From positions 352,402 to 416,401 of the forward strand of contig CAWEEK010000005.1 in the NCBI GenBank assembly GCA_963808065.1: a DNA stretch of 64,000 bases, read 5' to 3'. The notes under the pieces were generated by a model. That model was given only the letters and a program-made list of their open reading frames with translations. It ran no database searches and was not told where the DNA came from. The stretch is from an uncultured Chitinophagaceae bacterium (lineage in GTDB: Bacteria; Bacteroidota; Bacteroidia; Chitinophagales; Chitinophagaceae). This document shows, in pieces, positions 5,967 to 38,741 of this stretch. Position 1 is the stretch's first letter. Each line of letters begins with the position of its first letter. Position numbers and translations under genes: made by a program.

Positions 5967-7430
5967 TTAAAAATTCAACGCTTCCGTGCTTTTTTCGACG
6001 TCTGTTTCCCTCAGTTTGCCGTTGCTGCCATTTGGGGAAGAAACCAACAGAGTTCCCTGCAGGTATTTTTCATCGTGCTGCGTAAAGTCAAGACCAAGTT
6101 CTTCCTCTTCAGAAGTAACACGGATAGGCTGTATGTAGTTGATGAATTTGAAGATTACCCATGATACAGAGAAGGCATAGGCTGCAACTATGAGCATTGC
6201 TTTCAGCTGTGTAAAGAAGAAACTGAAATTGCCATAGAACCATCCTTCGGGACCACCGCTGATATTGTGCACCAATGGGGCCGCGAACACACCAGTCATG
6301 AGCATACCGGTCATACCACCGATTCCATGACATGGGAATACGTCGAGGGTATCATCGAGGCTGGATCTCTGCTTGATGCCGACGGCAATGTTTGAGATCA
6401 GCGCGCCAACAAAACCGATGATGATACTCTGCGGGATACCTACATAACCTGCGGCGGGCGTGATGGCAACCAGGCCTACAACGGCACCGATACAGAATCC
6501 GAGCACGGATGGTTTTTTACCTTTGAGCACGTCGAAGAACATCCATGCAAGCCCTGCTGCTGCAGCTGCTGTATTTGTAGTTCCGAAGGCGTTCACTGCA
6601 AGAGGAGTTGCTCCTACTGCTGAACCCGCATTGAATCCAAACCACCCGAACCAGAGCAAACCAGTTCCAATCAGAACATAAGGAACGTTGGCTGGAGGAA
6701 TCTCCCTCTTTTCGAGGTGGGACTTTCTTCTTTTCAACACGAGGGCACCAGCAAGGGCTGCGCAGCCTGCGGAGATGTGTACCACGGTACCACCCGCAAA
6801 GTCCCAGGCTCCCATCTTCGCCAGGAACCCTTCAGGATGCCAGGACCAATGTGCCAGAGGCGCATAAACCAGCAGACTGAACAATGCGATAAATAATATA
6901 TAGGAGGTGAAACGGATTCGTTCTGCGACGGCACCCACAACCAGACCTGGTGTGATGATGGCGAACATCAGTTGGAACAGGGAGAAAAGCGTCAGTGGGA
7001 TGGTATTCGCTCCTACCCAGGGAGCCCCTGATTTCACGCCTTTGTAAAACATAAAGGTGGTTGGATCTCCGATCACGCCTCCGATGTCTGAACCGAAGCT
7101 GAGGCTAAACCCTACAAAGATCCAGAGGATTCCAACTACCCCTGCCGCCACTACGCTTTTGATCATTGTTGAGATTACGTTCTTACGGTGAACCATGCCA
7201 CCATAAAAGAACGCGAGACCGGGAGTCATAAGAAATACCAGGGCGGTGGATACAAGCACCCAGGTAATGTCGGCCTGGCTGTACTGTGGGTCTTTGGGGC
7301 CTGGTACATAGTCGCCTTCCGGCTTAATAAACATAGCTACGAGAGCTAATAACAAGAGCACCCCAAAAGGGGCCACCTGTTTGAACGTGAGTTTTCGCAT
7401 ACCTGTGAGTTTTGTGTTGTTTATATTCAA
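5967..7430 (-). CDS. amtB: Ammonium transporter (Amt family)
   Basis: Polytopic membrane protein of 487 aa with Amt-type segments (FFYGGMV, DFAGGTVVHISAG, HGIGGMTGMLMTG). Intact. Confidence 0.9.
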   Translation of the reverse strand: MNINNTKLTGMRKLTFKQVAPFGVLLLLALVAMFIKPEGDYVPGPKDPQYSQADITWVLVSTALVFLMTPGLAFFYGGMVHRKNVISTMIKSVVAAGVVGILWIFVGFSLSFGSDIGGVIGDPTTFMFYKGVKSGAPWVGANTIPLTLFSLFQLMFAIITPGLVVGAVAERIRFTSYILFIALFSLLVYAPLAHWSWHPEGFLAKMGAWDFAGGTVVHISAGCAALAGALVLKRRKSHLEKREIPPANVPYVLIGTGLLWFGWFGFNAGSAVGATPLAVNAFGTTNTAAAAAGLAWMFFDVLKGKKPSVLGFCIGAVVGLVAITPAAGYVGIPQSIIIGFVGALISNIAVGIKQRSSLDDTLDVFPCHGIGGMTGMLMTGVFAAPLVHNISGGPEGWFYGNFSFFFTQLKAMLIVAAYAFSVSWVIFKFINYIQPIRVTSEEEELGLDFTQHDEKYLQGTLLVSSPNGSNGKLRETDVEKSTEALNF

Positions 7431-26131: not shown

Positions 26132-27532
26132 TTATTGAAGTTCACGAACGTCGGTGACCACTCCTGTAAGCGCGGAGGCTGCTGCGGTCAATGGACTGGC
26201 GAGCAGCGTTCTTGCTCCTGCCCCCTGTCGTCCTTCAAAATTTCTGTTGGATGTTGAAATGCAGTATTCTCCTGCCGGTATTTTGTCTTCATTCATACCC
26301 AGGCAGGCGCTGCATCCCGGCTGGCGGATGGCGAAACCTGCTTCCTGGAATATTTTATCAAGGCCTTCTTTTACCACCTGGAGGGCCACCTGTTGTGAAC
26401 CGGGCACGATCATCACTTCCACGTTGCTGGATTTTTTCTTTCCTTTTACAATGGAAGCAACAAGGCGCAGGTCTTCAATTCTTGAATTCGTACAACTGCC
26501 GATAAAAATATGTTTGACGGGCATGCCCAGCAATGGTTTCCCAGACTGCAGCCCCATGTAATCAAGAGCCTTGACGATATTTCTACGCTCTCCCTCATCA
26601 GGTATCTTATCCGTTTCGGGAATCAGGCCATTGATGGCAATGCCAAGACCCGGATTGGTACCATAGGTAATCATGGGTTCGATATCGGCGGCGGCGATGT
26701 TGATCTCCACGTCAAACTGAGCACCTTCGTCGGAATACAATTCTTTCCAGCCCTTCATCTTTCTGTCGAGCTGTTCATGAGATGGCGCAAACAGCCGACC
26801 TTTCATGTAATCAAAAGTGGTCTCATCCGGCGCAATCATTCCACCACGTGCGCCCATTTCAATACTCATATTACAGATGGTCATCCGCGCTTCCATACTA
26901 AGGTTCCGAATGGCCGAGCCCGCATACTCGACAAAATAACCTGTGGCACCGCTGGCTGATATTTTAGCAATGATGTATAAGATAATGTCTTTCGAAACGA
27001 CCCCGTTAGGAAGTTCGCCGTCGATGTTGATCCGCATTTGTTTTGGCTTGCTTTGCAGCAGGCACTGACTCGCAAATACCATTTCCACTTCACTGGTGCC
27101 AATTCCAAAGGCAATAGAACCAAAGGCTCCGTGCGTTGAAGTATGGCTGTCGCCGCAAACTATGGTCATTCCCGGCTGTGTGATGCCCAGCTCGGGTCCG
27201 ATCACATGCACAATCCCCTGGAAGGGATGACCCAGGCCGTAGAGTTCGATATTATGGTTCTTACAATTTTCAATCAGTTTGTTCACCTGGTGCCGTGAAA
27301 GTTCATCCTTGATGGGAAGATGCTGGTCGATGGTTGGCACATTGTGGTCGGCAGTGGCCACTACCTGCTGGGGTCGAAACACTTCCAATCCCCTGTTCTC
27401 AATTCCTTTAAACGCCTGGGGACTGGTCACTTCATGAATGAAGTGTTTGTCGATGTAAAGCACTGATGGGCCATTGGGAATGGATTTCACAATATGCTTT
27501 TCCCAGATCTTATCAAATAATGTTTTTGGCAT
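26132..27532 (-). CDS. leuC: 3-isopropylmalate dehydratase large subunit
   Basis: 466 aa aconitase-family protein with [14 protein letters not shown] and [11 protein letters not shown]. Intact. Confidence 0.95.
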
Positions 27533-27570
27533 GATGGAATGAGTTCTTTTATAAAAATGCGCTGGATGGT

Positions 27571-28741
27571 TCAGGCATTTACTGTTTTTTTCACGTATTC
27601 ATTGGCAAGTATCCTGAGGTCCTCTTCCATTACTTCTTTTCTCTGGTCGGCAACTTCAAGAAACCTTGGGTAAAGCACATCGATATCATTTCTGGTGTAT
27701 TCATATCCGAGTTTATGAAAGCGGTGGGCCAGCGCGCTCCTGCCGCTTCTTGCTGTGAGTACGATCTTTGAAAGTTCAGCGCCCACTTCCTCGGGATTGA
27801 TGATCTCATAAGTCAGGGCATCTTTCAAAAACCCGTCCTGGTGAATGCCAGATGAATGTGAGAAGGCATTGGCGCCGACAATGGCTTTGTTCGACTGCAC
27901 CGGCATGCGCATAGTGTCGCTCACCAGCCTGCTCATCGGATTAAGCATTTTTGCATTGATGCCGGTATAGAAACCCATGCTTGTATGTTGCTTAATGATC
28001 ATCACCACTTCTTCCAGTGAAGTATTGCCTGCGCGTTCGCCAAGACCATTGATGGTGCATTCGATCTGCCTTGCTCCATTCATAATACCCGCGATGGAGT
28101 TAGCCGTAGCCAGCCCAAGGTCATTATGACAATGGCAGGAAATCACCGCCTTGTCAATATTCGAAACATTGTTCAACGAGGTAGGCGATTTTTTCACCAT
28201 ATTGATGAGGCAGACAGTAACCGGTGGTGTCGGGAATATTCACCGTCGTCGCTCCCGCAGCGATGACTGCTTCGATCACACTGGCCAGATAATCATTGTC
28301 TGATCTTCCGGCGTCTTCAGCATAGAATTCAACATCATCGGTAAAATTTCTGGCCCATTTGACACATTGCACTGCTCTTTTGAGAATATCCTCACGATTT
28401 GAATTGAATTTGCTTTTGATGTGAAAATCGGAGGTGCCGATTCCGGTATGGATCCGGGGCCGTTTCGCTTTTTTTATGGCTTCTCCGGCCACTTCGATAT
28501 CTTTTTGCACCGCCCGGCTCAACGCACAGACTGATGCTTTGGTGATGATGGCGGAAATTTCCTGAACAGAACTGAAATCTCCCGGGCTGGAAATCGGGAA
28601 ACCCGCTTCAAGTATGTCTACACCCAATTCTTCCAGTCGAAGTGCCAGGTCAATCTTTTCCCGTGTGTTGAGTTTGCAGCCAGGCACCTGTTCGCCATCG
28701 CGAAGGGTGGTGTCGAAAATCAGGATCTTTTTATCTGACAT
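27571..28741 (-). pseudogene. leuA: 2-isopropylmalate synthase with one frameshift near 28154-28200
   Basis: [16 protein letters not shown] lies in fragment 28154-28741 and [13 protein letters not shown] in fragment 27571-28200. The two overlap in different frames. Confidence 0.85.
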
Positions 28742-28929
28742 ATTTAAAGAGGTTAAATTTGCAGTTGATTACAGAGGGTAGAGGACTTTGTTTAGATTGA
28801 TTTCCAATCCCGAAAATACCATATTAAATCAGGGTTTTAAATCATTTTTGAAGGATTTTTACACTTGTAAAACTCCGTTAGCTACGATGGAACGCCCGCC
28901 AGATAAGGATTTAAAGATTTTTAACTACG

Positions 28930-30501
28930 ATGCCCAACAGAACCAGCGAGTCTCTTTTTCAACTGATAAAATCCCTGGAAAAAGCAGAAAAGCGGAATTT
29001 CAAATTGTATGTGAATCGCAATTCAGGAAGTGAGGATCTTAAGATTGTACAGCTATTCGATGCCCTGGATAAAATGCATGAATATGATGAAAATCAGCTA
29101 CTTAAGAACAAAAGCCTGAGAAAACAGCAACTTCCCAACATCCAGTCGCACCTTTACCGTACCATCCTGTCGAGCCTGCGTATCCTTAAAGATACTGATA
29201 ATATCGACCTTCAGCTTCACGAACAGATGGATTATGCCCGGATACTTTACAACAAGGGTCTCTATTTGCAGAGCCTCCGGGTGCTTGACAGAATGAAGGA
29301 ACTGGCCCGTTCAGCAAACCAGTTTAGTTACCTGATGCAGGCCCTCTTTTTTGAGAAGAAAATTGAAAGTCTTCACATCACCCGCAGTATGCAGGACCGC
29401 GCCGAACGGCTGACCCAGGAAGCCGAGCTGGCGAATCAGAAGCTTGTGAGGATCAGCAGGTTATCAAACCTCTCCCTGCTGCTTTATAGTTGGTACATCA
29501 AAAATGGCCATGCCCGCAATGCACAGGACGAAGAGGCGATAAAGACCTTTTTCACGGATCATCTGCCAAAAAATGCCGCCCAGGTCAAGGGGTTTTATGA
29601 AAGACTCTATCTGTATCAGTGTCACTGCTGGTACACGTATATCCGCCAGGACTGGCTCATGTATTACCGCTATACCAGCAAGTGGGTGGATCTGTTCCGC
29701 AATGATGAAGAAATGAAGAGCATCGAGACCGCGCATTTTATCAAGGGAATGCACAATCTCCTTCATGCGCATTTCGGCCTCAAGAACTACGACCGTTTCA
29801 ATGAAACGCTCCAGGAATTCCGGGATTTCGCCGCCTCACCCCTGGGAATGCAGTCGCAGAATAATCGGATCCAAACCTTTGTCTACCTCAACCTCGCGGA
29901 GATCAACAAACACTTCCTGGAAGGTAGTTTCACCGAAGGCCTTGATCTGGCCCGAGAGATCGAAGTCAAACTGGATGAATATGGGCTTTATCTCGACAGG
30001 CACAGGGTGCTGGTATTTCAGTACAAAATCGCCTCCATGTACTTCGGAAGCGGAGACCCGGAAGCAGCCATTGAACACTTAAACACGATTATCAACTGGA
30101 AGGTGGACCTGCGGACGGATCTGCAGTGTTATGCCAGGCTGCTCCACCTCATCTCACACTACGAGTTGGGAAATTTTGAGCTGATGGAATATCTGGCAAA
30201 ATCGGTGTATCGCTTCATGGCCAAAATGGAAAACCTGAGTACTGTTGAAAAATACATACTGGGATTTCTGAGAGGTTCGCTTCGCATGTCAACATCCGAG
30301 GTCAAAGCCGCCTTCCGCGATCTGCTCCACAAATTGAAACAACACGAAAACAATCCGCTCGAAACCCGCGCCTTCAGCTACCTGGATATCGTATCCTGGC
30401 TGGAAAGCAAGATCAGTGGCAGACCCGTGCAAGAGGTGATCAGAAATAAATTTATCCAGGGATATCGTCAGGGGCGTGTGAAGGATCGGGGACATCCCTG
30501 A
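28930..30501 (+). CDS. Hypothetical helical-repeat (TPR-like) protein
   Basis: Intact 523 aa ORF, predicted alpha-helical by eye. I recognise no catalytic motif. Confidence 0.55.
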   Translation: MPNRTSESLFQLIKSLEKAEKRNFKLYVNRNSGSEDLKIVQLFDALDKMHEYDENQLLKNKSLRKQQLPNIQSHLYRTILSSLRILKDTDNIDLQLHEQMDYARILYNKGLYLQSLRVLDRMKELARSANQFSYLMQALFFEKKIESLHITRSMQDRAERLTQEAELANQKLVRISRLSNLSLLLYSWYIKNGHARNAQDEEAIKTFFTDHLPKNAAQVKGFYERLYLYQCHCWYTYIRQDWLMYYRYTSKWVDLFRNDEEMKSIETAHFIKGMHNLLHAHFGLKNYDRFNETLQEFRDFAASPLGMQSQNNRIQTFVYLNLAEINKHFLEGSFTEGLDLAREIEVKLDEYGLYLDRHRVLVFQYKIASMYFGSGDPEAAIEHLNTIINWKVDLRTDLQCYARLLHLISHYELGNFELMEYLAKSVYRFMAKMENLSTVEKYILGFLRGSLRMSTSEVKAAFRDLLHKLKQHENNPLETRAFSYLDIVSWLESKISGRPVQEVIRNKFIQGYRQGRVKDRGHP

Positions 30502-30680
30502 AAGAAAAAACCCTCTCTTACTCAGAAAGGGTCTCTGGATTCTTTAAGGTCGGGGTAGTGATGGTTTAGACGTCAGCAGAACAAATCTGCGTGTAATTTT
30601 CGGAGTACAATCCGCAACCTCTATGATCTTCAACAAAATACCTGAAATATTTAGCTGATGATTAGGCAAACACTTAGTGG

Positions 30681-32480
30681 TTATACCGCTGGTCTGTAAA
30701 CGAGCTCAGAAATTTTCTGATGCAGGTCTTCGGGACGGAAGGGTTTGTGCACATAATTGACAAACCCTTTGCTCAACAAATCCAACTGCATATTGTCGTA
30801 CACCGCGGCTGTAAATGCCATCGCGGGCACTGAATTATTTATCTTCCGGATCTCTCTGAGTGCAGTGGGGCCGTCCATCTCGGGCATTTCCAGGTCGATC
30901 AGCATCAGGTCGAAATTCCCCTTTGAGAATAATTCAACGGCTTCTTTTCCATTGACCGCTTCCGTAACAGTGATCCCCCATTTAGACATAAACCTTTTGG
31001 CCACTGACAGGTTTACCTTGTTATCCTCGGCAATTAATACCCTCACTCCTTCCAACGGAGAGAGTTGCCTGGTTTTCGCCTCATTGATATATAGCTTCCT
31101 GTCCTGGTTGATCTTCAATTCAATCGTAAAGTAGAATTCACTCCCTTTCCCCTCTACACTTTCAAGCAGCAGTTCGCTGTTGAACATATTGATCAGCTTC
31201 TTGCTGATTGTCAGTCCCAGACCGGTGCCGCCGAATTTGCGCGTGGTGTTGATGTCGGCCTGCGTGAAACTCCTGAAGATCTCAGTATGCTTGTCCGTTG
31301 GAATTCCGATGCCTGTGTCCTTCACCATGATCATTACGGTAGCTATATGGCTTGATGAAAAAACCTGCTTCGCTGTCAAACTGATGCTGCCCCTCTGTGT
31401 GAACTTGATTGCATTCGACAAGAGATTGCTCAGGATCTGATTCAGCCTGGTGTCGTCCATGACCAGTTCATTGTCGAGGTTCGGATCGATTGAAGTTCTG
31501 AAAACGAGGCCCTTTGACTGTATCTGTGGGGAGAACTGGCTGATCATGCTGTTCATGAATTCCATCAGGTTCACGGGACGTTCAACCAGCTCCAGTTTAC
31601 CGGCTTCAATCTTATGATAGTCGAGAATATCATTGATAAGCACCATCATGTGCTCGGATGAAAATTTGAGTATGTCGAGACTCGATTTTTGTTCAGGAAG
31701 GTGATCTTCCTGCAAAAGCAGGTTTGATGCGCCGATGATGCCATTCAGCGGCGTTCTCAGCTCATGGCTCATGTTGGAAAGAAATCTGGATTTTGTGTTG
31801 GATGCAATTTCCGCCTTCTTCTTAGCTTTGAGCAATTCATACTCCGTCATTTTCAGGTTGGAGTTTTCCTGCAGTATCAGGTCTTCATGGTCCTTGTTTA
31901 CCCTGAGTATCGCATAAGAAAATATAAGGGTGAGGCCCATGCCAATGGCGAGGTTGCCCGCATAGAGTTTACCGTACAGAGCCTCGGTGATCACTTCTAT
32001 GTTATTGGTCTCGGGACTGATGTGGAGGCAGACTACAGCAGATACTACCGTGATGGAATAAACGAGTATCCAGCCCTTGAAATGGCTGCCGATGCTTACC
32101 ACAAAGGTCAGTACCAGGAAATAGGGAAAATAATATAGGTAGGCGCCGGCACGGAGTCCTTCCACATAGGAAATGATAATCAAGTAGGCACTTAGGTTCA
32201 GAACCGATATGATCCTGCCCACCTCGAGTTTTTTCCTTGAGTTGAAATAATAGGCAATCAGGAAGAAATAGGCGGAAGTGATATTGATCAACGCGCTGAT
32301 ATACAGACCGTTAACAAAATAAAGCAGTACGGAAAGGAAGTTCATGAACAGCGCCAGGATGACGAACTGGTTGAGTCGGAGGATCTTCTTGCGCTGTTCC
32401 TTGGCGGTAACGCCCTGCAATCCTGAATGAAGTATATCGCGGTAAATTAAGGAGCCGAGATATAATAATTTCTGTTTCAT
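30681..32480 (-). CDS. Hybrid sensor histidine kinase (multi-TM sensor, HisKA, HATPase, receiver)
   Basis: About 6 N-terminal TM helices. H-box FLSNMSHELRTPLNG, N-box LSNLLSNAIKFT, G-boxes VKDTGIGI and GGTGLGLTISKKL. C-terminal receiver VLIAEDN...LMLIDLEMPEMDG. Confidence 0.9.
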   Translation of the reverse strand: MKQKLLYLGSLIYRDILHSGLQGVTAKEQRKKILRLNQFVILALFMNFLSVLLYFVNGLYISALINITSAYFFLIAYYFNSRKKLEVGRIISVLNLSAYLIIISYVEGLRAGAYLYYFPYFLVLTFVVSIGSHFKGWILVYSITVVSAVVCLHISPETNNIEVITEALYGKLYAGNLAIGMGLTLIFSYAILRVNKDHEDLILQENSNLKMTEYELLKAKKKAEIASNTKSRFLSNMSHELRTPLNGIIGASNLLLQEDHLPEQKSSLDILKFSSEHMMVLINDILDYHKIEAGKLELVERPVNLMEFMNSMISQFSPQIQSKGLVFRTSIDPNLDNELVMDDTRLNQILSNLLSNAIKFTQRGSISLTAKQVFSSSHIATVMIMVKDTGIGIPTDKHTEIFRSFTQADINTTRKFGGTGLGLTISKKLINMFNSELLLESVEGKGSEFYFTIELKINQDRKLYINEAKTRQLSPLEGVRVLIAEDNKVNLSVAKRFMSKWGITVTEAVNGKEAVELFSKGNFDLMLIDLEMPEMDGPTALREIRKINNSVPAMAFTAAVYDNMQLDLLSKGFVNYVHKPFRPEDLHQKISELVYRPAV

Positions 32481-32484
32481 AGAG

Positions 32485-32495
32485 TTATTGGATAA
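32485..32495 (-). promoter_or_regulatory. Single TTATCCAATAA box in the divergent HK / Hpt-RR intergenic region
   Basis: Plus strand reads TTATTGGATAA. The reverse complement carries the 9-mer TTATCCAAT, which recurs in the downstream 22 bp and 50 bp repeat units. Confidence 0.3.
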
Positions 32496-32535
32496 GTAGC
32501 TATTTGTAAAACGGTGAATAGCTCAAAATAGTACT

Positions 32536-32940
32536 ATGAATAACGAACCTCAGCCCAAGAAATTCATTTTTGATGATAAAATTGATGAGGAATACATCCG
32601 GAGCCTTTACGAGGATGAATATTCGTACATCACCGAGATCTTTCAGACCACGTTGGAGCATTTTGACGCGGACCTGCAGTTCTTGAGAACGGCCTTCGAG
32701 AAAGAGGATACCTTGGGGTTGAAAAAGGCAGCCCACAAATTGAAACCGGTTTTCGGTTTTACGGGTTTGCTTGGTGTACAGGAAATGTTGAACAACTTTG
32801 AGCAATTTTGTGGTTCGGCCCCGGAGTTTGTACTGGTGAAACCCCACTATGAGAAGGTGATTGCCGAACTATTGAATGCGAAAGCTATAATTGAAAAAGA
32901 ACATCAGCGATTGGCAGCCTATGCTGCCTCACTTATATGA
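32536..32940 (+). CDS. Stand-alone Hpt (histidine phosphotransfer) protein
   Basis: 134 aa helical protein with AAHKLKPVFGFTG (HxxK Hpt-type motif). Its stop overlaps the RR start (ATGA). Confidence 0.7.
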   Translation: MNNEPQPKKFIFDDKIDEEYIRSLYEDEYSYITEIFQTTLEHFDADLQFLRTAFEKEDTLGLKKAAHKLKPVFGFTGLLGVQEMLNNFEQFCGSAPEFVLVKPHYEKVIAELLNAKAIIEKEHQRLAAYAASLI

Positions 32941-33626
32941 GTTTATCCTGCGTCATCATAGAAGATCTGAAGGTCGCCGCCGACTACATCAACAACTGCT
33001 GCAAAAAAAGCGGGCTGGTTGAGGTCAGGGGAATATTTCCCGGAGTTGAGCCCGCACTAAAATTTTTGAATGAGGAAACAGTAGACCTGCTGTTCCTGGA
33101 CGTAGAGATGCCGGGGGCCACAGGTTTTGAACTGCTGGATAATATCGCCTATCAACCCAGCGTGATCCTGACTACGTCCAAAGAAGAGTATGCCTACAGT
33201 GCCTTTCAATATAAGGTGTCGGACTTTCTCAAAAAACCTTTCACCTATCAGCGTTTCCTGGAGGCCCTTGACAAAGTGCTTGAGAAAGAAAGCCGGAAGT
33301 CGGCCACAGAAACCGTTTCACATCTATTTATAAAGTGCGAGGGCAAGCTGGTTAGGCTTGATTACGATGACATCCTCTTTATTGAAAGCATGGGAGACTA
33401 TGTCCGCTTCGTTACGAATGACAAGAAATACATCACACACAATACCCTCAAGAACCTCGAGGAAAAGATAAGCAGTGACCACTTCATGAAGGTCCACCGA
33501 TCTTACATCATCAATCTGCGTAAAATCGACGATATCAGAGAGAATGACCTGTTTATCAAGGGAATAGAGATCCCGATTAGCAAGGCCCACAAGGCCGATA
33601 TCCTCCGGAAGCTGACTATACTTTAG
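32937..33626 (+). CDS. LytTR-family response regulator
   Basis: Receiver (VIIEDL.., LLFLDVEMPG) plus a LytTR DNA-binding domain (LFIESMGDYVRFVT...FMKVHRSYIINLRKI). Confidence 0.9.
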   Translation: MSLSCVIIEDLKVAADYINNCCKKSGLVEVRGIFPGVEPALKFLNEETVDLLFLDVEMPGATGFELLDNIAYQPSVILTTSKEEYAYSAFQYKVSDFLKKPFTYQRFLEALDKVLEKESRKSATETVSHLFIKCEGKLVRLDYDDILFIESMGDYVRFVTNDKKYITHNTLKNLEEKISSDHFMKVHRSYIINLRKIDDIRENDLFIKGIEIPISKAHKADILRKLTIL

Positions 33627-33918
33627 CTCCTTAACAAGACCTTAACGGCATTTTTCATCCATTCATCGAAGCAAAACTATCAACCATCTAATAAAGGTGC
33701 AGGAGGCGATTGCTTTTTACATCTTTGTATCAGCAAGAGAGACGAACGCAAAAGCAGAGAATAACACAGAAAATGAGAACAACAAAAAAGATATTAAAGA
33801 TAGTAACCGAAAGGTTATGATTATTAAACCCTAAACCTGTTTCAGTGATTTTGAAAAGGTTCTGACAGTTGCAGCTCTTTTCATTATGTTGATTTATTAA
33901 GGATTTTCGATTTCGGTG

Positions 33919-33948
33919 CCGGACCCCTTTCCGGGGTTCGGTTTTCTT
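33919..33948 (+). terminator. Plus-strand rho-independent terminator inside module 1
   Basis: CCGGACCCC-TTTCC-GGGGTTCGG (9 bp stem with one G-U pair) followed by TTTTCTT. There is no T-run on the opposite strand. Confidence 0.6.
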
Positions 33949-33983
33949 AAAATCCTGGTCCTTTGTCCAAATCCAATGAATAA

Positions 33984-34157
33984 CCGTCCTGATATCCAAT
34001 GAATACCGTCCTAATATCCAATGTTCGCCGTCCAATTATCCAATGTCACTGTCCTTTTGTCCTATGATCGCCGTCCAATTATCCAATGTTCGCCGTCCAA
34101 TTGTCCAATGTCACCGTCCTTTCATCCTATGATCTCCGTCCGTTTATCCAATGAAGA
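33984..34157. repeat. Tandem array of eight 21-22 bp units, consensus CCGTCCnnnTATCCAATGnnnn
   Basis: Units start at 33984, 34006, 34028, 34050, 34071, 34093, 34115 and 34136. A degenerate unit precedes at about 33955. A higher-order 43-44 bp alternation is also visible. Confidence 0.9.
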
Positions 34158-34306
34158 CCATCCAGTTATCCAATCCATGAATTGACCATCCGATCCGAAC
34201 CTTTGAAAAAGCCAGTTATCCAGTCTTAAGAAAAACCAACCCGACGACCGTATCAAGAACTTAATCTCCTTGAGAAAAACCATCTGTTATTAAGGTGAAA
34301 ATTATC

Positions 34307-34336
34307 AAAAAAGCCGCGTCCACTGCGGCTTTTCTT
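34307..34336. terminator. Hairpin terminator copy 1 (A-run, GCCGC-loop-GCGGC, T-run)
   Basis: AAAAAAGCCGCGTCCACTGCGGCTTTTCT. The sequence is symmetric enough to act on either strand. Confidence 0.55.
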
Positions 34337-34349
34337 GTTTTTGGGAGCC

Positions 34350-34389
34350 AGAGAAGAGAAAGAGAAAGAGGAAGAGAAAGAGGGAAAGT
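34350..34389. repeat. 40 nt pure polypurine (GA) tract in the spacer between modules 1 and 2
   Basis: AGAGAAGAGAAAGAGAAAGAGGAAGAGAAAGAGGGAAAG, with more GA-rich sequence continuing to about 34415. Confidence 0.85.
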
Positions 34390-34460
34390 ATGAAAGGCAG
34401 AGAGAGAAAGAGAACTATGTTAATAATGAAGCGGACATGGATTCTAACCCATCAACAACG

Positions 34461-34910
34461 CTTTAACGGCATTTTTCGTCCATTCATCGAAGCAAAGCGA
34501 TCAATCACCTAATAAAGGTGCAGAAGGCGAATGCTTTTTACATCTTTGTATCAGCAAGAAAGACGAACAGAAAAGCAGAGAATAACACAGAAGCACCATC
34601 CTAGTATCCAATGAATTCCGTCCTGATATCCAATGAACGCCGTCCAGTTATCCAATCCATGAAATGACCATTTCGATCCGAACCTTTGAAAAAGCCAGTT
34701 ATCCAATCCATGAATTGACCATCCGATCCGAACCTTTGAAAAAACCAGTTATCCAATCCATGAATTGACCATCCGATCCGAACCTTTGAAAAAACCAAGA
34801 ATCCAATCTTAAGAAAAACCAACCCGACGACCGTATCAAGAACTTATTCTCCTTGAGTTGTTATTAAGGTGAAACTTATTAAAAAAGCCGCGTCCACTGC
34901 GGCTTTTCTC
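34461..34910. repeat. Non-coding repeat module 2: H2, two 22 bp units, three 50 bp units, tail and hairpin
   Basis: 22 bp units at 34596 and 34618. 50 bp units at 34644, 34695 and 34745. Hairpin at 34881-34910. Confidence 0.9.
34644..34794. repeat. Three tandem copies of the 50 bp unit CCAGTTATCCAATCCATGAATTGACCATCCGATCCGAACCTTTGAAAAAA
   Basis: Near-identical copies. The first is 51 nt and carries 2 substitutions. Confidence 0.95.
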
Positions 34911-35000
34911 ATTTTAGGGAACTACAGAGTATTCGGTTTCCGGAGTATTTTGGCATGGTGGCCTCGAGATTGGGATCTCTACCCTCTTGATAACAGCTTG

Positions 35001-35062
35001 TTCCCTCACTCGCTCCCCCTCTTTCTCTTTCTCTTTCTGTTTCTCTTTCTGTTTCTCTCACC
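35001..35062. repeat. Polypyrimidine (CT) tract in the spacer between modules 2 and 3, in inverted orientation relative to 34350-34389
   Basis: TTCCCTCACTCGCTCCCCCTCTTTCTCTTTCTCTTTCTGTTTCTCTTTCTGTTTCTCTCACC. Confidence 0.85.
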
Positions 35063-35269
35063 AAACCTTTATCGGCATTTTTCATCCATTCATCGAAGTA
35101 AAGCGATCAATCACCTAATAAAGGTGCAGAAGGCGAATGCTTTTTACATCTTTGTATCAGCAAGAAAGACGAACAGAAAAGCAGAGAATAACACAGAAGC
35201 AACGTCCTAATATCCAATGTCACCGTCCTTTTATCCTATGATCGCCGTCCCTTATCCAATGAAGACCGT

Positions 35270-35469
35270 CCAGTTATCCAATCCATGAATTGACCATCCG
35301 ATCCGAACCTTTGAAAAAACCAGTTATCCAATCCATGAAATGACCATCCGATCCAGACCTTTGAAAAAACCAGTTATCCAATCCATGAATTGACCATCCG
35401 ATCCGAACCTTTGAAAAAACCAGTTATCCAATCCATGAATTGACCATCCGATCCGAACCTTTGAAAAAA
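35270..35469. repeat. Four tandem copies of the same 50 bp unit
   Basis: Exact 50 bp periodicity. Copy 2 differs at 2 positions. Confidence 0.95.
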
Positions 35470-35568
35470 CCAAGAATCCAATCTTAAGAAAATCCGACCC
35501 GACGACCGTATCAAGAACTTATTCTCTCCTTCGAGAAAAAACCATCTGTTATTAAGGTGAAACTTATC

Positions 35569-35605
35569 AAAAAAGCCGCGTTCTACTGCGGCTTTTCTTT
35601 TTTTT
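35569..35605. terminator. Hairpin terminator copy 3. On the minus strand it lies about 27 nt after the stop of the ferritin-like gene.
   Basis: AAAAAAGCCGCGTTCTACTGCGGCTTTTCTTTTTTTT. The minus strand reads hairpin plus TTTTTTGATAAG. Confidence 0.7.
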
Positions 35606-35624: not shown

Positions 35625-36443
35625 TTACACAGCGAAGAACGGAGTCACAATGGCGATGACCTCGTCAAAACTCAAAGGTTCATCAAATGCCTCTGATGCC
35701 GCGCTGTCCGAAATACCGGAATTGCCAATATTAGTTATGGTCACATTTGCCTGAGTGGTGGCTTCTTCCCCATCGTAGCTGGCCTGCACTGCCGCGCCGA
35801 TACCGCTGTCACTACCCGTGATCCAGGGTTTTACACTGGCTCCTCTTCCCTTGCGAATCTGACGGATATGCGAAGCATGTCTGGCTTCCACCGAATGTAT
35901 ACTGAGTGCGGCGAGCAGCACCTCATTGCTTGCCATCAAGGAGCCCGCCTGACCTTTATATGCCCTCACACCAGTGTCTTCAAAGGTCTGCGCTACAGCA
36001 AGGAAAGTATCGTAGTTCGTAAACACGTCGGGGAAGGTCCCTGCGGCGGTGAAGTCAAATTCGGGGGAATCAACGGGCGTACCACCCGCCGCCGAGATCG
36101 CGGCTTTGATATAGTTCACGTGTGCGGTTTCATGTCCGCTAATGACAGTGAGGGCGGCTTGGTCATCCTCTGCAATAAGGTCCGGAGTGGCAAGCCCTTT
36201 TTCATAAAATGCGGCTTCGAGGTATTCAAGTTTGAGTGCGAAGTTCAGTATGTCGATTGCATTGGTCGGCGTCTGTCCATAAGTTTTTTGCATCATGGTG
36301 CCCAGCGCTATCGGCATGGCAGCCACGCTCACCTTGCCGGCGAAGCGGGTGAAATTTCTGATCACTTCCCTTCGACCATTCAGTTTTTCATAGACCTCGG
36401 GTTCTGACTTTTCTATCTGGTTAAATATATTCTGGAGATTCAT
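35625..36443 (-). CDS. Ferritin-like domain protein (secreted, desiccation-protein-like family)
   Basis: 272 aa with paired ExxH-type helices (LEYLEAAFY, HETAHVNY, SVEARHASHI). Paralogous to the upstream gene. Confidence 0.7.
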   Translation of the reverse strand: MNLQNIFNQIEKSEPEVYEKLNGRREVIRNFTRFAGKVSVAAMPIALGTMMQKTYGQTPTNAIDILNFALKLEYLEAAFYEKGLATPDLIAEDDQAALTVISGHETAHVNYIKAAISAAGGTPVDSPEFDFTAAGTFPDVFTNYDTFLAVAQTFEDTGVRAYKGQAGSLMASNEVLLAALSIHSVEARHASHIRQIRKGRGASVKPWITGSDSGIGAAVQASYDGEEATTQANVTITNIGNSGISDSAASEAFDEPLSFDEVIAIVTPFFAV

Positions 36444-38680: not shown

Positions 38681-38707
38681 CTTCTTCCTCTTCCTCTTTC
38701 TCTTTCT
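38681..38707. repeat. 27 nt polypyrimidine tract sharing CTCTTTCTCTTTCT with 35001-35062
   Basis: CTTCTTCCTCTTCCTCTTTCTCTTTCT, in the scpB-lysA intergenic spacer. Confidence 0.8.
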
Positions 38708-38741
38708 GATTCTACCTGTGCAGATCAACCGCTGGATGTTA

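Follow-up and report, generated by a model that had tools for sequence, protein, structure and literature searches.

A likely cluster of small RNA genes with tandemly amplified AUCC motifs beside a LytTR phosphorelay in Chitinophagaceae

The 2-kb stretch directly downstream of a LytTR response regulator gene in this uncultured Chitinophagaceae bacterium is most likely a cluster of four small RNA (sRNA) genes, in three of which an AUCC motif has been amplified into 22- and 50-nt arrays, and the cluster is probably switched on by the adjacent regulator. We base this reading on architecture, conservation, regulator linkage, strand, motif enrichment, low structure, and recurrent but variable expansion, all computed directly from the window (the whole 64-kb stretch of DNA that was analysed) and from related loci. 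The model we prefer, with moderate confidence, is that the tandem genes belong to a kinase-Hpt-LytTR phosphorelay and specify regulator-activated, multivalent AUCC decoys. We found no description of the locus in the literature.

Gene neighborhood and architecture

Pfam searches identified a hybrid histidine kinase with HisKA, HATPase_c, and receiver domains (30681 to 32480, minus strand), divergent from the genes for an Hpt phosphotransfer protein (32536 to 32940, plus strand) and a LytTR-family response regulator with receiver and LytTR domains (32937 to 33626, plus strand). The order of the three genes is the same in relatives, and orthologs of the regulator are ~70% identical across Chitinophagaceae. 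On the far side of the cluster is a convergent Ferritin_2 gene, also identified by Pfam (35625 to 36443, minus strand), which shares the last terminator and which we place outside the system; it is missing at the corresponding position in more distant relatives.

A sequence-only reading of this stretch had described three co-oriented modules, each running from a head through a 22-bp and then a 50-bp array to a tail and its terminator, and we recovered every one of these elements in its place. Its unit counts and ours never differ by more than one, because the hybrid unit where the 22- and 50-bp arrays meet was counted differently. The 22-bp unit CCGTCCnnnTATCCAATG has 15 matches at ≤3 mismatches between 33984 and 35283 (2.0 ± 1.3 in shuffles) and a single match elsewhere in the 64-kb window, and TRF assigns it 9.3, 2.4, and 3.7 copies in modules 1, 2, and 3. 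For the 50-bp unit, 7 near-exact copies of a 44-nt core were found versus 0 expected; TRF counts 3.3 and 4.3 copies in modules 2 and 3, respectively, and module 1 contains a single full unit and a partial one. As had also been proposed, the region contains no credible open reading frame (ORF), the longest being 113 and 101 amino acids with no Pfam hit above noise. Small proteins were rejected as an explanation on the same lack of Pfam hits and on the behavior of a short ORF after the first head, which is frame-shifted between close strains and absent after the second and third heads.

The first head, H1, would drive a conserved type-1 sRNA of ~215 nt (predicted at 33734 to 33948, plus strand), which carries the motif CCCUAAAC at 33829 to 33836 and would end at its own terminator, T1 (33918 to 33948; called at 33918 to 33942), which is a terminator on the plus strand only. 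This segment had been taken for an extra 190-nt insert in module 1. It is instead the ancestral, conserved type-1 sRNA, found also in the nearest outgroups (L004, L005, and L007) and at ~12 further loci, and modules 2 and 3 are copies from which it has been lost. Apart from the terminator, the consensus structure of type 1 contains just a 10-bp long-range helix (UGAAAUCC/GGAUUUCA) that is largely invariant, with a single compensatory change. Conserved single-stranded motifs, CCCUAAAC and AAUCUCCUCGAG among them, turn up repeatedly in RNAs of both types.

The segment after T1 would be a conserved type-2 RNA, and in modules 2 and 3 a type-2 body appears fused directly to the head. Type-2 body a (33949 to 34341, plus strand), positioned behind a strong terminator and without a head of its own, has a 22-nt array of 9 units (33971 to 34174), then a full and a partial 50-nt unit (34162 to 34261), the tail, and a bidirectional terminator (34307 to 34341). 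The predicted type-2 sRNA b (34555 to 34915, plus strand) begins with a 40-nt leader, followed by 22-nt units (34596 to 34661), a 50-nt array (34644 to 34808), the tail, and a terminator (34881 to 34915). In the predicted type-2 sRNA c (35161 to 35604, plus strand), 22-nt units (35202 to 35283) and a 50-nt array (35270 to 35483) precede a tail box, CUCUCCUUCGAG (35524 to 35535), and a bidirectional terminator (35569 to 35604). The bidirectional terminators of the three bodies were called at 34309 to 34333, 34883 to 34907, and 35571 to 35596. This arrangement probably arose in the present lineage by amplification of motif-bearing segments into 22- and 50-nt tandems, together with duplication of the whole gene and loss of the type-1 part from the copies.

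Neither spacer is assigned to a strand. Spacer 1-2 (34342 to 34460) is AG-rich and of low complexity; spacer 2-3 (34916 to 35065) holds an inverted scar of the regulator-gene 3' end (34969 to 34993) and a CT-rich tract (35017 to 35058) inverted relative to spacer 1-2. Scars of the regulator 3' end occur in both orientations in the spacers, which shows that rearrangement here has been frequent.

The sequence alone had suggested no known RNA family, CRISPR, REP/BIME, or IS element, and our searches agree. With Rfam 15, the window at E ≤ 10 gave only terminator-like noise below threshold, 11 related loci at the gathering score gave only tRNAs, and 4 loci at E ≤ 1 gave noise. A CRISPR array was rejected because the units abut head to tail without spacers and the neighbors are a two-component system and ferritin-like genes. 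REP/BIME, MITE, or IS-type repeats were rejected because the units form repeats nowhere else in the 64 kb and, in the metagenome collection, are confined to the orthologous locus. In type III toxin-antitoxin systems, a tandem repeat array (ToxI-like) is followed by a co-oriented toxin gene (ToxN/AbiQ-like). A ToxI-like antitoxin was rejected here, given that the following gene is convergent (Ferritin_2 in the window, a decarboxylase gene in relatives). Finally, reading the minus strand, on which GGAU/GGACGG would supply CsrA-like GGA motifs, is contradicted by the heads and T1 terminators, all of which point to the plus strand.

Promoter heads and their linkage to the regulator

The three heads (from 33631, 34452, and 35058 onward) are 81 to 94% identical over 162 nt. 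H1 (33641 to 33735, plus strand) contains box A (~33643 to 33649), box B (ATCGAA, 33665 to 33670), and box C (ATCTAA, 33686 to 33691) at 21-bp spacing, followed by a -7-type promoter element, CATCTTTG (33720 to 33727), and a predicted transcription start at ~33734. In H2 (34461 to 34556, plus strand), box B, box C, and the -7 element lie at 34486 to 34491, 34507 to 34512, and 34541 to 34548, with a start predicted at ~34555; in H3 (35066 to 35162, plus strand), they lie at 35092 to 35097, 35113 to 35118, and 35147 to 35154, with a start predicted at ~35161.

The head family comprises 73 copies at 51 Chitinophagaceae loci. All 73 are downstream of and co-oriented with orthologs of this LytTR regulator, with none upstream of it or on the other strand, and in the 64-kb window the head model matches the three heads only. 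Of 35 loci at ≥57% regulator identity, 28 have a head and 7 have none beside the regulator. Behind every head come a body without ORFs and an intrinsic terminator on the plus strand, and other genomes have between one and four of these units in tandem (three in L067 and four in L060). These heads, ORF-free bodies, and terminators together indicate tandem sRNA genes, in keeping with the earlier suggestion of paralogous repetitive noncoding RNA genes. Of the two associations raised from the sequence alone, the one with the regulator holds at all of these loci; the one with ferritin-like genes does not, as L004, L005, and L007 lack them.

Each head has three conserved boxes of consensus (T/A)ATCGAA (TTATCG for box A). 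Information content peaks at the boxes, whose spacing is exactly 21 + 21 bp, with a further peak at the -7 element; the conserved C of the boxes occupies alignment columns 5, 26, and 47, and the boxes stop ~25 nt short of the -7 element. Within TCG, the C never varies, and the G reaches 1.7 to 1.9 of 2 bits in boxes A and B and 1.0 bit in box C. Downstream of the boxes, an invariant promoter element, CATCTTTGTATCAG, is found throughout the family; the -7 element is of the Bacteroidota type, and no -24/-12 (GG-N10-GC) element was seen when the heads were inspected by eye. The sites bound by LytTR regulators are 9-bp direct repeats with 12-bp spacers (PMC2766830), and the heads combine a linked LytTR response regulator with direct repeats at a 21-bp period upstream of a core promoter. 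In sequence, the boxes depart from the classical LytTR consensus [TA][AC][CA]GTTN[AG][TG]; only box A of the window, read on its other strand (GCCGTTAAG), resembles it. Site sequences differ between LytTR regulators. The heads have LytTR operator geometry upstream of a predicted promoter, and from this geometry we infer that the regulator binds there. A head would then be an activator-dependent promoter, with three direct boxes centered near -88, -67, and -46 to which the phosphorylated regulator would bind upstream of the -7 element.

We also considered a role for the arrays as DNA. The sequence-only reading had raised a cis-regulatory platform for the LytTR system; this idea survives for the heads, with their three boxes 21 bp apart, but not for the arrays, which lie downstream of the promoters and are unlike the boxes. 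A version in which the 22-bp units (ATCCAAT per two helical turns) are low-affinity sites for the LytTR regulator or another DNA-binding protein, acting as a titrating platform or as a roadblock within the transcribed region, strikes us as very unlikely. It draws on the equality of the 22-bp period with the 21- to 22-bp spacing of LytTR repeats (PMC2766830), on the position of the arrays directly adjoining the regulator gene, and on box C of this lineage (ATCTAAT/ACCTAAT), which is one or two bases from the unit core ATCCAAT. However, the units carry C where boxes A and B have a highly conserved G, the head model matches nothing within the arrays, and the motif is strictly strand-specific. Furthermore, AUCC spacing in relatives is irregular, with clusters at 5 to 8 nt and 19 to 30 nt, and their expanded units (19, 20, 24, 45, 48 to 51, and 69 nt) are not helically phased. 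We set aside the idea that the 22-bp units form a series of LytTR sites because the boxes are found in the heads, the units are unlike them, and the periods of relatives are unphased. Since box C (ATCTAA or ACCTAA in this lineage) is one base from the ATCCAA of the unit, weak binding of the regulator to the arrays may still occur.

AUCC enrichment, low structure, and array turnover

The bodies that follow the heads are 100 to 450 nt long, ORF-free, A/C-rich, and G-poor. In 35 type-2 RNAs of other genomes, AUCC occurs 196 times, versus 37.2 ± 5.7 in shuffles, and its complement GGAU 4 times; the usual form is RAUCC(A/G/U). Within the window, AUCC density is 30.8 per kb in the region and 5.3 per kb outside it. 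The locus holds ~50 AUCC and ~20 GUCC sites in total, with 14 AUCC and 13 GUCC in body a, 15 AUCC in sRNA b, and 21 AUCC in sRNA c; no GGAU is present in any of the three, nor is any GGA. The module-3 RNA folds worse than 98 of 100 shuffles, and bodies across the family, with a mean z of +1.2 and a positive z in 27 of 37, are less structured than shuffles. AUCC positions tend to be a little more unpaired (0.68 versus 0.61, P = 0.025). Both the accessibility and the structure signals are modest. A decoy or sponge is expected to offer many accessible copies of one short strand-specific motif, and such copies are present here far above chance.

We asked how much of this pattern might reflect neutral turnover, in which unequal crossing-over or slippage builds minisatellite arrays in a dispensable part of the sRNA locus and function is confined to the heads, the tails, and the type-1 RNA. 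The repeat units are 93 to 96% identical to one another, so the expansions are recent. Strains with 98 to 99% identical kinase and regulator differ in modules (2 versus 3) and in unit number, bearing out the variation between strains that had been envisaged. Neutral turnover would also yield recent, strain-variable expansions, and it fits the regulator scars in both orientations and the lack of arrays in the nearest outgroups. However, at least eight other lineages have independently expanded different units, nearly all of them containing AUCC and/or AAAACC (69 nt × 5.6 in L029 and 19 nt × 5.7 in L013, with others in L009, L011, L015, L042, L055, and L056). Non-repetitive type-2 RNAs are already ~5-fold enriched in AUCC, and the arrays throughout remain poor in G, free of GGAU, and weakly structured. 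We regard neutral arrays as an unlikely explanation. A related proposal, a minisatellite seeded from the ferritin operon, was right about copy-number variability but not about origin, as L004, L005, and L007, without ferritin genes, have a matching tail and terminator beside a decarboxylase gene.

An assembly artefact, with the tandem repeat mis-joined or mis-counted, is the explanation to which we give least credence. Short-read assemblers can miscount tandem repeats, and one Logan contig (L002) breaks within the 22-bp array. Against this, the architecture was recovered not only in the window but also in L001, a near-identical independent ENA assembly with equal counts and three differences over 2 kb, and in JGI metagenome contigs L087 to L089 from other projects. 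Moreover, the units carry ordered point differences, such as a 65-bp super-period in module 1.

Base-pairing sRNAs would account equally well for the promoters and terminators. Under this alternative, the repeated AUCC, CCGUCC, and GAAAAACC are seeds for GGAU-containing mRNAs or other RNAs, and amplification raises their dosage. The recurrence of single-stranded CCCUAAAC and AAUCUCCUCGAG in both RNA types is consistent with it, as is the existence of multicopy seed-bearing sRNA families in Bacteroides, such as FopS (PMC11697453). However, GGAU, UGGAU, and GGAUU are not enriched at the 381 to 504 predicted start codons in these loci, and duplex energies are not significant, either between type-1 RNA and the kinase leader or between type-1 and type-2 RNAs (z of ~0, no better than shuffles). 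The latter result also led us to reject type-2 RNA as a sponge for type-1 RNA. In addition, a 4- to 5-nt core repeated 15 to 21 times per RNA is more typical of protein-binding decoys than of seeds. We consider base pairing possible but improbable.

Candidate decoy function and known systems

In the decoy model, the type-2 body would be a G-poor, weakly structured carrier of many AUCC motifs. Activation of the phosphorelay would produce RNAs that titrate a factor recognizing single-stranded AUCC, most likely an RNA-binding protein, and the copy numbers of units and genes would set the titration capacity. By analogy, the logic may be that of CbrB→CrcZ or GacA→RsmY/Z.

In the CbrA/CbrB system of Pseudomonas, the sRNA gene crcZ is likewise immediately downstream of a co-oriented activating regulator gene (always downstream of cbrB), has paralogs (CrcY and CrcX), and carries several copies of a short single-stranded motif that acts as a protein decoy, sequestering Hfq/Crc (PMC5113210). 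The systems differ in that CbrB is NtrC-type with sigma-54 promoters, whereas here the regulator is LytTR-type and the promoter has a Bacteroidota -7 element, and the motif is AAnAAnAA for Hfq/Crc there and AUCC here. CrcZ also lacks internal 22- or 50-nt tandem arrays and shows no sequence or Rfam similarity to these RNAs. A CrcZ-type sponge was rejected, given 0 to 1 AAnAAnAA per type-2 RNA and a LytTR-type regulator.

Similarly, in GacS/GacA (BarA/UvrY), a hybrid kinase phosphorelay controls a few sRNA genes (RsmX/Y/Z, CsrB/C) almost exclusively; these RNAs carry many copies of a short motif, and paralog and motif numbers vary by species. That motif, however, is GGA in hairpin loops, bound by CsrA/RsmA, unlike the predicted unstructured type-2 bodies here. 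GacA is a NarL/FixJ-type regulator, and the genes for the Csr/Rsm sRNAs lie away from the regulator gene, unlike the sRNA genes here. With no GGA in the three bodies, low predicted structure, and no Rfam match to CsrB/Rsm, a sponge of this type was rejected.

LytTR regulators that act on direct repeats upstream of a nearby regulatory RNA promoter are known from AgrA → RNAIII (Staphylococcus), FasA → FasX (Streptococcus; fasX is just downstream of fasA), and VirR → VR-RNA (Clostridium). These are Firmicutes systems, mostly with peptide-sensing HPK10-type kinases and one structured base-pairing RNA; the present system, in contrast, is in Bacteroidota and has a hybrid HisKA kinase, a separate Hpt, and several tandem RNAs with repetitive unstructured bodies. 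The LuxQ/LuxU/LuxO → Qrr1-5 pathway of Vibrio is also a hybrid kinase-Hpt-regulator phosphorelay acting on paralogous sRNA genes with their own regulator-dependent promoters; qrr1 adjoins the regulator gene, and the number of Qrr paralogs varies between species. Qrr RNAs have sigma-54 promoters, are ~100 nt long, pair with targets in an Hfq-dependent manner, and are genomically dispersed without internal repeats, whereas the sRNA genes here are tandem with internal repeats. Within the phylum, FopS/GibS of Bacteroides thetaiotaomicron is likewise a multicopy sRNA family, in which an intrinsic terminator comes after a single-stranded functional region; FopS is bound by the RRM-1 protein RbpB and is stated to be deposited in Rfam (PMC11697453), no family of which matches the RNAs here. 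FopS genes differ in being dispersed and tied to polysaccharide utilization loci; they have a single conserved 5' seed, lack internal arrays, and are not linked to a LytTR regulator.

Little is understood of how Bacteroidota regulate their genes post-transcriptionally. To our knowledge, neither classical RNA chaperones nor the sponge RNA systems of Proteobacteria have been found in this phylum, and we know of no such decoy RNA in this bacterial group. In Bacteroides, a member of the same phylum, none of Hfq, ProQ, and CsrA has reportedly been identified (PMC13370968). We can offer, as a more speculative possibility, that the locus is a Csr/Crc-like global switch of Chitinophagaceae, in which AUCC decoys would be the main output of the phosphorelay and would titrate an undiscovered single-stranded-RNA-binding regulator, the ribosome-binding region of the kinase mRNA (UAUCCAAUAACUCU-AUG) would carry the motif and so allow feedback, and capacity would evolve fast by amplification of 22- and 50-nt units. 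The locus offers a recognizable conserved sRNA family whose upstream signal pathway is explicit, a candidate motif that is sharply defined, and natural variants of motif dosage, which make a search for the binding partner directly testable. In addition, LytTR regulators of soil Bacteroidota would acquire a function, and the locus is a clear case of an sRNA evolving through internal tandem amplification.

The kinase-leader element itself, UAUCCAAUAACUCU (32483 to 32496, minus strand, directly before the kinase start codon), is best treated as a lead rather than an established part of the system. Outside this lineage, mimicry of the kinase leader by type-2 bodies is not significant (11 versus 5.6 ± 3.1). 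In this lineage, 35 7-mers are shared versus 2, hits that are not independent because they are drawn from repeat units. The 8-mer UAUCCAAU is common to UAUCCAAUAACUCU and the 22-nt unit, and UAUCCAAUAACUCU is kept in ~17 loci, with the sequence upstream of it diverging.

Repeat architecture and its origin

The 2.0 kb that separate the stop of the LytTR response-regulator gene (32937-33626, plus strand) from that of the convergent Ferritin_2 gene (35625-36443, minus strand) contain no credible ORF, as the sequence-only reading had proposed; the longest ORFs encode 113 and 101 aa, and a Pfam search of both returned nothing above noise. The three modules described for this region, each a head, a 22-bp array, a 50-bp array, and a tail, were also recovered. 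The direct head copies are 81 to 94% identical across 162 nt, and a terminator (A-run/hairpin/T-run) closes every module. The 22-bp unit CCGTCCnnnTATCCAATG matched 15 times inside the region and once elsewhere in the 64 kb (2.0 ± 1.3 in shuffles), while the 44-nt core of the 50-bp unit matched seven times against an expectation of 0. By TRF, modules 1, 2, and 3 carry 9.3, 2.4, and 3.7 copies of the 22-bp unit; the 50-bp unit is present in 3.3 copies in module 2 and 4.3 in module 3, and module 1 holds one full and one partial copy.

In L001, an independent ENA assembly with 98.6% identity to the window along 12.7 kb, the 2-kb region shows only three differences and equal repeat counts. A search of the metagenome collection with an exact two-unit pattern matched three JGI contigs, each at the orthologous locus, with kinase and regulator 99% and 98% identical to the window's. 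One of these (L089) has three modules with unit numbers unlike those of the window and another (L087) only two; no repeat units were found outside the locus in the rest of the window or in the metagenome collection searched. An assembly artefact, to which we give a negligible chance, is excluded as the source of the repeats, and copy number is variable. Most of the divergence from L001 lies upstream, at 3.4% across 26940-30680 and 2.3% within the kinase gene; from the Hpt gene onward it is about 0 to 0.3%, a drop that suggests a recombination boundary within or beside the kinase gene.

Orthologues of the regulator at ~70% identity occur throughout the Chitinophagaceae (Flavitalea, Niastella, Puia, Agriterribacter, Ferruginibacter, and others) in a conserved order of divergent hybrid kinase, Hpt, regulator, non-coding stretch, convergent decarboxylase, ScpB, and ATP synthase gamma. 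The two ferritin-like genes were inserted in the window's lineage. In the nearest outgroups by regulator identity (L004 at 85%, L007 and L005 at 73%), the non-coding stretch exists as one copy without arrays, consisting of a head, a ~200-nt core running to a plus-strand terminator, and a ~190-nt tail running to a second terminator. An additional terminator in module 1 (33918-33942), which works on the plus strand only, had been attributed to an extra 190-nt insert. The terminator stands, but given the core in these outgroups the segment is ancestral and was lost from the copies that make up modules 2 and 3. Each motif of the 22- and 50-bp units is found once in the tail of L004 (CCGTACCCTATATATCC; TATCCATGAA…GATCCGAT; GATCCTTTGAAAAGACC), and the arrays therefore arose from that tail, not, as had been suggested, from a minisatellite seeded at the 3' end of the ferritin operon.

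The last 25 to 80 nt of the regulator gene are left as scars in the inter-module spacers. The scar at 34969-34993 (compared with 33553-33577) is inverted in the window and in the JGI contigs L088 and L089; that of L087 (reverse complement, ~6340-6430) is direct and degenerate. These scars place the former start of the duplicated segment within the regulator gene and show repeated rearrangement of the region. Both spacers also hold AG-rich/CT-rich low-complexity tracts (CTCTTTCTCTTT-like; 34350-34414 and 35017-35058) that lie in opposite orientation and are 94% complementary over 31 nt. A similar AG/CT tract is found at 38683-38713, near the decarboxylase gene start, and L088 has a longer CTGTTT-type tract in the same spacer position.

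Heads and the predicted RNA units behind them

Iterated nhmmer searches recovered 64 heads, and a head-only model recovered 73 in 51 loci. Co-occurrence with the regulator, a possibility raised by the sequence-only reading, was borne out: all heads lie downstream of the regulator on the same strand, and among those found none is upstream or on the opposite strand. Of the 35 loci with a regulator at 57% identity or above, 28 carry a head, and in the 64-kb window the model matches the three heads only. The alignment of the head family contains four conserved islands, TTATCG (columns 1 to 6), ATCGA (columns 24 to 28), CGAA (columns 47 to 50), and CATCTTTGTATCAGCAAG (column 79 onward). The conserved C of the three boxes falls at columns 5, 26, and 47, a spacing of 21 + 21 bp. 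Operators of LytTR regulators consist of 9-bp direct repeats with 12-bp spacers (PMC2766830) and thus share this 21-bp period. Relative to a predicted start ~7 nt past the G of the promoter element CATCTTTG, box centres lie near -88, -67, and -46. CATCTTTG resembles the -7 element of Bacteroidota, TAnnTTTG, and the head alignment shows no conserved -33 element in front of it, as expected of an activator-dependent promoter. We infer that the heads are promoters with LytTR-type operators and that the regulator binds the boxes.

In a Saprospiraceae MAG (L071, 4690-4760), three 21-nt-spaced boxes, CCAAAAAACGG, CCAAAAAACGAAG, and CCAAAAATCGG, directly follow a regulator homologue (46% identical). 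Next come an element resembling a promoter and the gene of a secreted protein (signal-peptide-like N-terminus) in place of an sRNA. This arrangement supports assigning the boxes to the regulator and not to the RNA.

Downstream of each head, 100 to 450 nt without ORFs run to a plus-strand intrinsic terminator, and every head is predicted to drive a small non-coding transcription unit. Such units occur in tandem, with four in L060, three in L067, and two in many genomes. Carriers in culture include Niastella yeongjuensis DSM 17621 (L026), N. populi (L025), Paraflavitalea sp. CAU 1676 (L019), Longitalea luteola (L023), and Puia sp. P3 (L045). Type 1, conserved in at least 15 loci and represented in the window by 33734-33948, contains in most clades a largely invariant 10-bp long-range helix (UGAAAUCC/GGAUUUCA). 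Type 2, the AUCC-rich RNA, follows type 1; in Niastella, Longitalea, Pseudobacter, and Paraflavitalea a separate head precedes it, and in the window's sub-clade it lies directly behind the type-1 terminator. In the window's modules 2 and 3, a head and 40-nt leader are fused to a type-2 body. No Rfam family matched the window or 15 related loci, and full-text literature searches turned up no account of the locus.

Tandem triplets of a short (125 to 150 nt) head-driven sRNA type in L060 (5493-6490) and L067 (4815-5565) are without AUCC motifs and carry a CUAAAC motif, which is common to the window's type-1 RNA (CCCUAAAC, 33829-33836) and Niastella type-2 RNAs and may be a common seed. Unrelated dispersed short repeats of REP-like appearance occur in the same intergenic regions (L023, 4993-5078 and 634-673; L005, 4380-4500; L012, 4700-4750), including a AACGCTGAACGCTCA-type 14-nt tandem repeat and a GC-rich palindrome, CCCCTCCGGAGGAGGGG. 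Two distant loci have large tandem repeats a few kilobases from the regulator homologue: 158 nt × 5.3 in L030 (7835-8687) and 276 nt × 9.6 in L086 (5676-8318), the latter a multiple of 3 that may be coding.

AUCC-rich RNAs as putative decoys

Type-2 bodies are A/C-rich and G-poor (A 39%, C 23%, G 15%). AUCC occurs 196 times in 35 type-2 RNAs of other genomes compared to 37.2 ± 5.7 in shuffles, and its complement only four times in the same RNAs. The motif context is RAUCC with a next base other than C, and the most enriched words are AAUCCAA, AUCCGA, GAUCC, and GAAAACC. The three bodies in the window contain 14, 15, and 21 AUCC and, in total, 20 GUCC; GGAU is absent from all three. The module-3 RNA folds worse than 98 of 100 dinucleotide shuffles (z = +1.68), the family-wide mean z is +1.2 (27 of 37 bodies above zero; p = 0.003), and AUCC positions are slightly more unpaired (0.68 versus 0.61; p = 0.025).

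Tandem expansion has also occurred independently in relatives, with a 69-nt unit × 5.6 in L029 (several AAUCCAA per unit), a 19-nt unit × 5.7 in L013, and 20- to 24-nt or 45-nt units in six further loci (L009, L011, L015, L042, L055, and L056). Neutral minisatellite growth within a dispensable part of the locus would be in keeping with the young, variable units; however, repeated and independent expansion of motif-bearing units makes this unlikely. Similarly, the arrays might be DNA-level sites for the regulator, since their period fits and the lineage's box C is close to ATCCAAT. However, the head model finds no match in the arrays and repeats in relatives are not phased, and we consider this reading quite improbable. 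Unit lengths vary, and AUCC spacing is irregular where bodies are non-repetitive; both favour selection acting on the RNA over selection on phased DNA sites.

Our best explanation is a decoy mechanism, whose functional steps we propose as follows. The phosphorelay of hybrid kinase, Hpt, and LytTR regulator would activate the head promoters; type-2 RNAs would expose dozens of single-stranded AUCC sites as decoys for an AUCC-recognising factor; and unit and gene amplification would tune decoy capacity. Base-pairing sRNAs with multiple seeds are a possible, though doubtful, alternative: duplexes between type-1 and type-2 RNAs, used as a partner test, and between type-1 RNA and the kinase leader were no better than shuffles, and GGAU-type words showed no enrichment at start codons.

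In Firmicutes, some LytTR regulators act via an adjacent regulatory RNA, as in AgrA→RNAIII and FasA→FasX. The proposed route from regulator to decoy RNA follows the same logic as CbrB→CrcZ and GacA→RsmY/Z. The gene crcZ is always downstream of cbrB and is also co-transcribed with it, and its repeated motifs sequester Hfq/Crc (PMC5113210). The locus would work like these regulator-linked decoy sRNAs yet belongs to none of their families, as regulator class, promoter type, motif, phylum, and internal tandem arrays all differ. No Hfq, ProQ, or CsrA has been identified in Bacteroides, while RRM-1 proteins occur widely across the phylum (PMC13370968, PMC11697453). The locus offers a concrete handle on the open question of the missing global RNA-binding regulators of Bacteroidota.

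The kinase leader element

An element, (U/A)AUCCAAUAACUCU-AUG, directly precedes the kinase start codon and is conserved in ~17 loci, while sequence further upstream diverges. It occupies 32483-32496 (minus strand) in the window and the same position in L007, L008, L014, L018, L019, L023-L026, and others. The window's element has the 8-mer UAUCCAAU in common with the 22-nt unit; outside the window's lineage, kinase leaders and type-2 bodies had 11 7-mers in common versus 5.6 ± 3.1, which is not significant. Should kinase translation be controlled by a factor bound to this element, the decoy RNAs would exert feedback on their own pathway.

In three loci whose regulators are 66 to 67% identical (L017, L021, and L075), AUCUAAUAACUCU replaces AUCCAAUAACUCU before the kinase start. 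In L017 and L075 the regulator is followed by neither a head nor an sRNA gene, and L021 ends a few bases past the regulator gene. The leader element may co-vary with the presence of the AUCC RNA; alternatively, the sRNA genes may lie elsewhere in these genomes.
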